From: Escherichia coli
Lineage (GTDB): Bacteria; Pseudomonadota; Gammaproteobacteria; Enterobacterales; Enterobacteriaceae
Assembly (NCBI RefSeq): GCF_003790525.1
Contig: NZ_CP033635.1
DNA length: 64,000 nt
Reading direction: 5' to 3' (one strand)
Positions 59,096-60,265 of this stretch are shown one piece after another; within the stretch, counting starts at the first letter, position 1, and every line of letters begins with the position of its first letter. The notes below the pieces were generated by a model. That model was not told the DNA's origin, did no database searches, and saw only the letters and a list, made by a program, of their open reading frames with translations. Both the position numbers and the translations under genes were made by a program.

Positions 59096-60265
59096 TCAGG
59101 CGGTTTCTCTTGCTGTCACTACGCCATTTTGCGCAGCCCACAGATTCACATCTTCCTTACGAATGGCGGCGGCCATCATGCCGGGGAATAAATCTGGGGT
59201 ACAGGCAAAGGAGGGAATACCCATGGCGGCGAGTTTTCCTGCCAGTGACCGGTCGTAAAACGGCGCACCTTCATCGCTTAAGGCCAGCAGGGTAACCACC
59301 TGTACGCCGGACTGAATCAACTCACTGGCGCGTTGCAACAGATTGCGTTCCACCCCGCCTTCGTAGAGGTCGGAAATCAGCACCAGAATGGTATTGCGCG
59401 GATCGCGAATCAAAGACTGGCAGTAGCCCACCGCGCGGTTGATGTCGGTGCCGCCACCCAGCTGTACGCCAAACAGCAGCTCTACCGGATCGTCGAGCTT
59501 CTCTGTCATATCAACGACTGCGGTGTCGAAAACCACCAGATGCGTTTTTACCGCCGGGAGCGATGCCATTACTGCGCCAAAAATACTGGAATAGACCACC
59601 GAGGAGGCCATCGACCCACTCTGGTCGATACATAAAATGATCTCCTTTTGCGTGCGTTGAGACTTGCGCCCGTAGCCGATCAGCGTTTCAGGAACAATAC
59701 TTTTATACTCTTCCTGCCAGTGGCGCAGGTTGGCGCGAATGGTGCGCTGCCAGTCAATTTCCGCGTGGCGCGGGCGACGATTACGTACCGCACGATTAAG
59801 AGCGCCGCTTACCGCGCTACGCATTGGCTCTTCAAGCTGTTTCATCAATTGCTCGACAACTTTACGCACCACAAGCCTGGCGGTTTCTTTGGTTTTGGCC
59901 GGAATTACGCCATTCAGCGACATCAGCGTGGAGACCAGATGAACATCAGGCTGGACGTTTGCCAGCATCTCCGGCTCCAGCAACATACTGTGCAAATTAA
60001 GACGTTCAAAGGCGTCTTTTTGCATCACCTGAACCACAGAAGAAGGGAAATACTGGCGAATATCACCCAGCCAGCGAGCGACTTTGGGTGACGATCCACC
60101 CGTGCCGCCGCGTAATCCATGTTTACCCTCTGGCTGATACAGCGCCGCCAGCGCGGCATCAATCGCGGACTCTCTGGCATCCAGCGCCACGTTACAGGCA
60201 TTGTCGGCATCTTCTCCAAGGATCAGACGCCAGCGGCGCAGCCGTTCCATTTCGTTACTCGACAT
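59096..60265 (-). CDS. von Willebrand factor A (vWA) domain protein, 389 aa
   Basis: MIDAS motif DQSGSM (DxSxS) in ...ILCIDQSGSMASS...; AAAGGGA Shine-Dalgarno; start overlaps upstream gene stop by 11 nt. Confidence 0.8.
   Translation of the reverse strand: MSSNEMERLRRWRLILGEDADNACNVALDARESAIDAALAALYQPEGKHGLRGGTGGSSPKVARWLGDIRQYFPSSVVQVMQKDAFERLNLHSMLLEPEMLANVQPDVHLVSTLMSLNGVIPAKTKETARLVVRKVVEQLMKQLEEPMRSAVSGALNRAVRNRRPRHAEIDWQRTIRANLRHWQEEYKSIVPETLIGYGRKSQRTQKEIILCIDQSGSMASSVVYSSIFGAVMASLPAVKTHLVVFDTAVVDMTEKLDDPVELLFGVQLGGGTDINRAVGYCQSLIRDPRNTILVLISDLYEGGVERNLLQRASELIQSGVQVVTLLALSDEGAPFYDRSLAGKLAAMGIPSFACTPDLFPGMMAAAIRKEDVNLWAAQNGVVTARETA

Follow-up and report, generated by a model that had tools for sequence, protein, structure and literature searches.

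The Gene and its Operon

The window analysed here is a stretch of 64,000 nucleotides (nt) of Escherichia coli DNA (NCBI RefSeq assembly GCF_003790525.1, contig NZ_CP033635.1) that is part of the chromosome of E. coli SMS-3-5 (100% identity to NC_010498.1). This report concerns one of its genes, at 59096..60265 on the minus strand, which encodes a protein of 389 amino acids (aa) with a von Willebrand factor A (vWA) domain. The open reading frame (ORF) starts with ATG and agrees with the RefSeq coding sequence (WP_000097506.1, "VWA domain-containing protein"). The Pfam family VWA_CoxE and an alignment with YehP of E. coli K-12 mark it as the gene of a CoxE-type, YehP-like vWA adaptor. It is the last gene of a five-gene operon on the minus strand, annotated by RefSeq in the order SWIM, DUF5691, AAA_5 ATPase, DUF5682 and vWA and referred to below as the cassette. 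Sequence comparisons show that this five-gene system is of the MoxR type and belongs to the YehL subfamily, that it is paralogous to the yehI-yehLMPQ system of K-12, and that the ORF encodes its CoxE-type vWA adaptor. "YehL" is one of seven named MoxR subfamilies (PMC3893208). The protein is thus an ordinary member of a known and annotated family that is functionally uncharacterised.

The first gene of the operon, for a SWIM zinc-finger protein of 440 aa (RefSeq; Pfam SWIM at aa 59-81), lies beyond the end of the window on the minus strand (L001 19215-20537). The DUF5691 gene (534 aa when whole; RefSeq and Pfam) runs off the window, which holds its 3' part (63613..64000, minus strand; L001 17614-19218). 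The third gene encodes a MoxR-type AAA+ ATPase of 364 aa that belongs to the YehL subfamily (62522..63616, minus strand). An annotation made earlier from the sequence letters alone (the first-pass annotation) had assigned the vWA protein a MoxR-type ATPase as partner, and the gene two positions upstream bears this out with an AAA_5 match at E=1.6e-38 and 41% identity to YehL. The ATPase start at ATG 63616 is backed by RefSeq and by the YehL alignment and overlaps the DUF5691 stop by 4 nt; a mechanical ORF list gives the gene as 62522-63700, with a TTG at 63700 and 392 aa. The fourth gene encodes a YehM-like DUF5682 protein of 749 aa (60255..62504, minus strand; DUF5682 E=2.4e-268; 27% identity to YehM). 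Neighbouring genes of the operon overlap by 4 or 11 nt or are separated by a 17-nt gap.

The overlap of 11 nt is that between the DUF5682 and vWA genes. The ATG of the vWA gene occupies 60263-60265 and the TAA of the DUF5682 gene 60255-60257. As read from the sequence, GAAAGGGAAAATC stands before the ATG, and a Shine-Dalgarno-like AAAGGGA is located 5 nt 5' of it, within the upstream gene (60271..60277, minus strand). This start, 11 nt inside the 749-aa gene and behind AAAGGGA, had been proposed in the first-pass annotation, and both the sequence and RefSeq confirm it. An internal start codon was ruled out, as conservation begins at aa 9 and the RefSeq start is identical. Among 57 orthologous loci, 45 have an in-frame vWA start that overlaps the stop of the upstream DUF5682 gene. 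The offset is most frequently -4, and the -11 of E. coli recurs in 9 loci. Judged by these sequences, the overlap of start and stop is more than chance, and its retention in 45 of the 57 loci indicates translational coupling of the two genes.

The vWA Domain and its Metal Site

The Rossmann-like vWA domain spans aa 209-365 (59171..59641, minus strand) and is modelled by AlphaFold2 with a predicted local distance difference test (pLDDT) score of 84-94. The DxSxS motif of its metal ion-dependent adhesion site, or MIDAS, is DQSGS at aa 214-218 (59612..59626, minus strand; sequence and alignment), close to residue 215 of 389, where it had first been placed. The remaining MIDAS ligands are T273 within GGGTD and D299 within ISDLYEG. 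Residues D214, S216, S218, T273 and D299 were all invariant in an alignment of 20 sequences. In the AlphaFold2 model, the MIDAS positions fall after strand beta1, before the helix 275-285 and after the strand 292-298.

The assignment is supported at the level of both family and fold. Pfam VWA_CoxE (PF05762) matches aa 149-359 with E=3.6e-52 and covers positions 6-217 of the 222 in the model. A Foldseek search of the PDB with the full protein model matched the vWA domain only; at E<=1e-3 there were 54 matches, the best of them at 1.2e-5, and they include BatB, the MIDAS domain of Rea1, NorD and integrin I domains. The sequence combines a vWA domain with a MIDAS of the functional type in which every ligand is present, and metal binding is predicted. 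The original identification of a vWA protein with an intact MIDAS is thereby upheld by Pfam, alignment, model and Foldseek alike.

Distribution and Coexistence with the Yeh System

The vWA gene of the cassette was found in 33 of 5426 complete E. coli genomes, always in single copy and always on the chromosome. The yehP gene was found in 5334 of the same 5426 genomes and belongs to the core genome, whereas the cassette vWA gene is accessory. All 33 cassette-bearing genomes, SMS-3-5 included, carry both vWA genes. Coexistence was established with a concatenated query, and the yehP region of SMS-3-5 is rearranged. BLASTP aligns the cassette protein with K-12 YehP at 38% identity over aa 9-365 (E=4e-80), N-terminal half included, and the motifs RWRLxLG and D.AL..LY are common to both.

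Outside E. coli, relatives were detected in at least 583 species in a scan of one genome per species. In the best 80 loci, the vWA protein is 58-79% identical to that of E. coli. These loci span Proteobacteria, Verrucomicrobia, Cyanobacteria, Chloroflexi, Bacteroidota, Actinobacteria, Acidobacteria, Planctomycetes, Deinococcota and others, and the cassette operon was also found on metagenome contigs. The complete order SWIM-DUF5691-AAA-DUF5682-VWA is present in 47 of the 80 loci. Of the remaining 33, many lie on contigs too short to hold the upstream genes, others have rearrangements or gene calls that are split or fused, and four have the vWA gene alone. Across 53 complete loci, the ATPase has a mean pairwise identity of 0.73 and the vWA protein one of 0.64, followed by DUF5682 (0.49), SWIM (0.39) and DUF5691 (0.28). 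A recurrent sixth neighbour gene that might encode a client was sought around the cassette loci and none was found. The cassette is therefore not placed beside an obvious client enzyme, unlike CoxDE, NorQD and CbbQO.

Other arrangements were also observed. In Fulvitalea axinellae and Streptomyces fungicidicus, plasmids carry a third variant (L003 5416-10898 and L004 5518-11004). It has the order hyp-hyp-vWA-AAA-DUF5682, with a vWA protein of 470-482 aa and a DUF5682 protein of 960 aa, and the S. fungicidicus copy lies near a DNA methylase and a type IV secretion system gene. One metagenome contig with an orthologous cassette (L009) has a second, unrelated MoxR-vWA pair at 13439-16900, in which the vWA protein has Rv0959/Mb0984-like helical domains and adjoins an AAA_5-like ATPase. 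Phage origin of the cassette family was ruled out; of the two matches in phage collections, one was a flanking yehP gene of the host and the other a faecal contig without annotation.

The N-Terminal Half

The AlphaFold2 model of the whole vWA protein has a pLDDT of 79 and a predicted template modelling score (pTM) of 0.72. About 206 mostly helical residues precede the vWA fold, with helices at aa 3-16, 30-43, 60-72, 75-89, 91-96, 98-103, 108-116, 123-162 and 172-178. The helix 123-162 is 40 residues long. A hairpin at about aa 183-197 follows, and then strand beta1 (207-214), which ends in the MIDAS motif. The loop aa 48-60 has low pLDDT, yet G53, S58 and P60 within it are conserved. An extension of about 200 helical-looking residues had been predicted before the vWA fold, and the model agrees, with the domain boundary at beta1. 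Its description as rich in Arg and Leu was roughly right but hid an uneven composition: aa 1-148 have 12.8% Leu and 7.4% Arg, and in aa 149-208 Arg reaches 18.3%.

The alignments divide this half of the protein into three layers of different breadth. The innermost layer, aa 122-208 (59642..59902, minus strand), comprises the helix 123-162, the Arg-rich motif IDW.RTIRANL and the beta hairpin, and would include the pore finger discussed below (hhalign, AlphaFold2 and analogy with NorQD). It is common to genuine CoxE, as hhalign against CoxE aligns aa 122-327 with a probability of 97.5%. The middle layer, aa 78-121, is common to all vWA proteins linked to DUF5682. It lies inside a longer helical segment, aa 61-121 (59903..60085, minus strand), which a comparison of identities between clades marks as clade-specific and as a candidate determinant of partner pairing. 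The outermost layer, aa 1-77 (60035..60265, minus strand), consists of N-terminal helices with the aligned motifs RWRLxLG, D..L..LY and GGxGxSxP..W and is common to the YehP clade only. In the third clade, that of the plasmids (clade C), a longer and different N-terminus takes its place, and the vWA protein is alignable from aa 78 onward only.

All orthologues cover the full length of the protein. When 1.84 billion representative proteins were searched with aa 1-152, matches fell into 1103 clusters. No other architecture with this N-terminal module was seen, and the few long matches inspected were frameshifted, fused or chimeric calls on high-GC contigs. Searches of PDB sequences with the protein and with the family profile gave no match to the N-terminal half, and Foldseek against AFDB50 returned orthologues only. 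A helical N-terminal domain is typical of CoxE-type vWA proteins (Kaur et al., PMC7159879). The sequences compared show that members of the family normally have this N-terminal part of about 206 residues, which is conserved and built in three layers. The extension is no peculiarity of this gene, as the VWA_CoxE, CoxE and YehP alignments and the full-length orthologues make plain. Of the alternative that the first-pass annotation had set against its proposal, one half therefore applies: the extension does belong to a larger known vWA architecture, but not to one with a characterised role.

Probable Pairing of the Adaptor with its ATPase

How might two related ATPase-adaptor pairs be kept apart in the same cell? 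Identities within and between clades were compared for 23 sequences of the cassette clade (A) and five of the Yeh clade (B). For aa 61-121 of the vWA protein, identity is 0.69 within A and 0.55 within B and falls to 0.24 between the clades (ratio 0.39), which is the lowest ratio of between- to within-clade identity of any region. The values for aa 1-60 are 0.47, 0.43 and 0.35 (ratio 0.78), and those for the vWA domain 0.69, 0.61 and 0.44 (ratio 0.68). In the ATPase, the lid (aa 231-364) shows the same pattern as aa 61-121, with 0.69 within A, 0.47 within B and 0.27 between them (ratio 0.47), whereas the alpha/beta core has 0.82, 0.74 and 0.57 (ratio 0.73). Within clade A (53 loci), aa 61-121 have an identity of 0.71, equal to that of the ATPase. 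Pairwise identities of aa 61-208 track those of the ATPase best (partial rho 0.47-0.55 with the vWA domain controlled for). Given the divergence of segment 61-121, the matching divergence of the lid and the coexistence of both systems, docking of the segment on the cognate lid is the most economical reading, and it is probably through this segment that the adaptor is matched to its own ATPase. The proposal that the N-terminal extension serves as a specificity element thus survives in a refined form, as pairing with the cognate ATPase; specificity for the 749-aa protein in particular does not follow.

A mechanism can be proposed by analogy with NorQ-NorD and CbbQ-CbbO. In structures of NorQD determined by cryo-electron microscopy (cryo-EM), the vWA finger fills the pore, while the N-terminal domain rests on the small alpha-helical subdomain and NorD contacts the postS1 loop with its C-terminus (PMC13036017). 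In the cassette protein, the helix and hairpin before beta1 (aa ~165-206) would insert into the pore of the hexameric ATPase, while the MIDAS at the other end of beta1 would hold the client by an acidic residue. A second anchor, on the ATPase lid, would come from the N-terminal helical domain, in which segment 61-121 would ensure pairing with the cassette's own ATPase and not with YehL. Rotation driven by ATP might then remodel the client. The client would probably itself be encoded in the cassette, and DUF5682, coupled to the vWA protein in translation, is the likeliest candidate. This account as a whole, from the identity of the protein and its N-terminal layers to a finger and lid mechanism with the cognate ATPase, is in our view the best explanation of the data, with a probability of roughly 60%.

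The N-terminal domain might instead recognise the client, be it DUF5682, DUF5691 or SWIM, with the vWA domain and its finger alone touching the ATPase. Target specificity has been proposed for the N-terminal domains of MoxR-linked vWA proteins (Kahle et al., 2023; PMC9976466), and the translation coupling to DUF5682 in 45 of 57 loci would suit such a role, as would the fact that DUF5691 and DUF4132 are the clade-specific components of the two systems. In mirror-tree comparisons, aa 1-60 correlate best with DUF5691 and DUF5682 (rho 0.50-0.51), and aa 122-208 correlate equally with DUF5682 and the ATPase (partial rho 0.55 each). The segment that distinguishes the clades behaves differently: aa 61-121 match the ATPase in conservation (0.71 against 0.73) and lie far above DUF5682, SWIM and DUF5691 (0.49, 0.39 and 0.28). 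Moreover, the ATPase lid co-diverges between the clades, and in the sole solved system the N-terminal domain is found on the ATPase (PMC13036017). Client recognition by the N-terminal domain thus seems unlikely to us.

Several points weigh against pairing through the N-terminal segment and against the mechanism built on it. Mirror-tree correlations are weak evidence, confounded by shared phylogeny, and the clade comparison includes just five sequences of clade B. The assignment of the finger and the contact with the lid are drawn from analogy, and no relative of aa 1-121 was detectable in the PDB or Pfam. NorD (69 kDa) has a linker of about 150 disordered residues, whereas the cassette protein has a single helix of 40 residues; with a long helix in place of a disordered linker, the mechanics may differ. 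The client of NorD is known to be cNOR, whereas DUF5682 is a candidate client of the cassette system. Finally, in four of the 80 loci (L059, L060, L061 and L079, from Competibacter, a Chloroflexales metagenome-assembled genome (MAG), a gammaproteobacterial MAG and a Saprospiraceae MAG) the vWA gene stands alone at about 60% identity, with its partners absent within 9 kb on either side. The same four loci make the earlier statement that vWA domains are obligate MoxR partners too strong.

DUF5682, the Flanks of the Cassette and a Possible Role in Conflict

The proposed client was modelled with confidence (pLDDT 88, pTM 0.82), and the model suggests that helical repeats follow a domain at the N-terminus that is TraB/ChaN-like. 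Invariant residues of DUF5682 include H13, H14, E37, E82, D100 and H213. Support for a relationship to TraB/ChaN was not found at the sequence level, and the likeness is one of fold only.

The cassette lies between nanQ (yhcH) and gltD. A LexA-box-like exact palindrome, CTGTTTTCCGTAACAG (CTGT-N8-ACAG; L001 20604-20619), stands within the 232 bp upstream of the SWIM gene, which places it about 2.6 kb past the end of the window, and 30 kb of sequence contain no second exact match. Among 54 other orthologous loci, a box of the LexA type was seen in just one (L022), so LexA control is not a conserved feature of the system.

These observations bear on a further reading, in which the cassette is a conflict, defence or stress system. 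Together, MoxR and vWA would form a threshold switch for the release or activation of an effector, DUF5682 would be a TraB/ChaN-like hydrolase, and the N-terminus of the vWA protein would keep the effector latent. The fold-level likeness to TraB and ChaN fits this scheme, as do the self-contained cassette without conserved neighbours, its patchy presence in E. coli (33 of 5426 genomes) and the plasmid copies, which adjoin restriction-modification genes or a DNA methylase. According to Kaur et al. (2020), MoxR-vWA conflict systems stem from CoxD-CoxE pairs (PMC7159879). For the accessory genes of the Yeh type there are hints of a link to DNA damage: in Deinococcus, DUF4132 and WGR/MolR genes are induced on depletion of DdrO as part of a DNA-damage regulon (PMC8533742). 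The cassette of E. coli has the exact CTGT-N8-ACAG box upstream of its operon. This box, however, recurs in a single other locus, and the family is not phage-borne. The vWA protein retains 58-79% identity across phyla, unlike fast-evolving defence genes, and ends about 25 aa past the fold with no extra C-terminal domain. No match to the five proteins was found in PADLOC (PADLOC-DB v2) except a marginal one of the ATPase to IetA (E=1e-3), and neither NCBIfam nor PADLOC assigned the vWA, DUF5682, DUF5691 or SWIM protein to a family. The Pfam results for the partners included no VMAP or iSTAND family, in scans that were not aimed at either, and the bpMoxR match of the ATPase was weak (E=2.9e-4). 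A conflict system is accordingly a doubtful reading, to which we give little weight.

Some features of the flanks were also recorded. A 123-nt remnant of a DUF1016 gene is located at 58968-59090 on the minus strand, 5 nt past the vWA stop. It is probably yhcG, and by the K-12 gene order the cassette would then stand in place of gltF-yhcADEF and the greater part of yhcG. A 190-aa ORF at 58187-58759 on the plus strand, between nanQ and the cassette, stands out with a G+C content of 40%, compared with about 55-58% around it. This ORF had no match in NCBIfam or PADLOC, and a terminator-like hairpin lies 3' of it at 58891-58904.

Significance

The annotation of the gene is in itself routine, namely a CoxE-type adaptor with the N-terminal half usual for its family and a translationally coupled start. 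Literature searches on DUF5682, DUF5691, VWA_CoxE and PF05762 found no papers. The value of the locus lies in the sister system that it places beside the Yeh system in 33 sequenced strains, as yehLMPQ of K-12 has been uncharacterised since the genome was sequenced. What the present comparison of sequences adds is a sharper hypothesis on the specificity segment and the recognition that two paralogous systems coexist. Two short segments, aa 61-121 of the vWA protein and the lid of the ATPase (aa 231-364), probably keep the two ATPase-adaptor pairs apart. They offer a testable handle on partner specificity between MoxR and vWA proteins and a natural setting with two systems in which to search for clients. 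A more speculative extension would see the cassette, which is spread over hundreds of species of many phyla and whose ATPase and vWA adaptor are unusually well conserved, as a self-contained machine that remodels the TraB/ChaN-like DUF5682 and is insulated from the Yeh system by segment 61-121. We think this improbable as it stands; if true, it would give MoxR systems a new role, for instance in reacting to DNA damage or foreign genetic elements.

Comparison with Known Systems

CoxE of Afipia (Oligotropha) carboxidovorans, the founding member of Pfam VWA_CoxE and the partner of the MoxR ATPase CoxD, is a largely helical protein of 399 aa with 12.5% Arg and a C-terminal vWA domain (PMC4240915). 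Like the cassette protein, it has about 390-400 aa, a C-terminal vWA domain with a MIDAS and an Arg-rich helical N-terminal half (PMC4240915). The homology runs from aa 122 through the vWA domain and includes the motif IDx.RTI..N..H before beta1. CoxE lies in the cox cluster, as shown for pHCG3, and is needed for maturation of the CuSMoO2 cluster. Could the cassette protein be a CoxE orthologue that matures a metalloenzyme, such as the Mo/Cu CO dehydrogenase? The similar size and Arg-rich N-terminal half, the Pfam VWA_CoxE match and the CoxE alignment at 97.5% probability might suggest so. Yet the two proteins are only 25% identical over 158 aa, and nothing in CoxE could be matched to aa 1-121. 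The ATPase of the cassette is of the YehL type (AAA_5) and not CoxD, which belongs to another MoxR subfamily. No cox, xdhC or metalloenzyme genes adjoin the vWA gene, here or in the 80 other loci. Orthology to CoxE fails on this gene context and is very improbable.

NorQ-NorD is the MoxR-vWA pair that is best understood. NorD, like CbbO and ViaA, shares with the cassette protein an arrangement in which a linker joins an N-terminal domain to a C-terminal vWA domain with a MIDAS, and in each case the gene of a MoxR ATPase is adjacent. The vWA fold of the cassette protein matches that of NorD (entry 9qhg_G), and the element just before beta1 could be a pore finger. Outside the vWA fold, however, no sequence relationship to NorD was detected.

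The Yeh system of K-12 is likewise among the closest known systems. YehP has the same full-length architecture as the cassette protein and works from a locus with the same partner families, that is, an AAA_5 ATPase, a DUF5682 protein and a SWIM protein. The start of yehP likewise overlaps the stop of the DUF5682 gene. A +1 frameshift cassette has been reported in K-12 yehP (L002 12968-14104); it is absent from the gene studied here at the homologous position, 59417-59452. The differences between the two systems begin with segment 61-121, in which YehP is just ~20-24% identical to the cassette protein. They extend to the order of the genes, which is DUF4132-AAA-DUF5682-vWA-SWIM in the Yeh type and SWIM-DUF5691-AAA-DUF5682-vWA in the cassette. 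DUF4132 takes the place held by DUF5691, with no detectable similarity between the two, and YehQ has only the zinc finger in common with the SWIM protein of the cassette. The Yeh-type order, or a close permutation of it, was found in Iodobacter, Bacillus mycoides, Streptomyces and Allorhizobium. In Yeh-type loci of four phyla, a YehI-like DUF4132 protein of about 1200 aa recurs as a constant fifth component (L090 756-4409, L091 1170-4604, L092 363-3950, L093 3997-7986 and, for K-12, L002 5280-8912). From this constancy, yehLMPQ of K-12 is probably part of a larger yehI-yehLMPQ unit. With its different gene order, a DUF5691 protein unlike YehI and a SWIM protein that shares only the zinc finger, the cassette represents a sister clade of yehLMPQ and not its orthologue.

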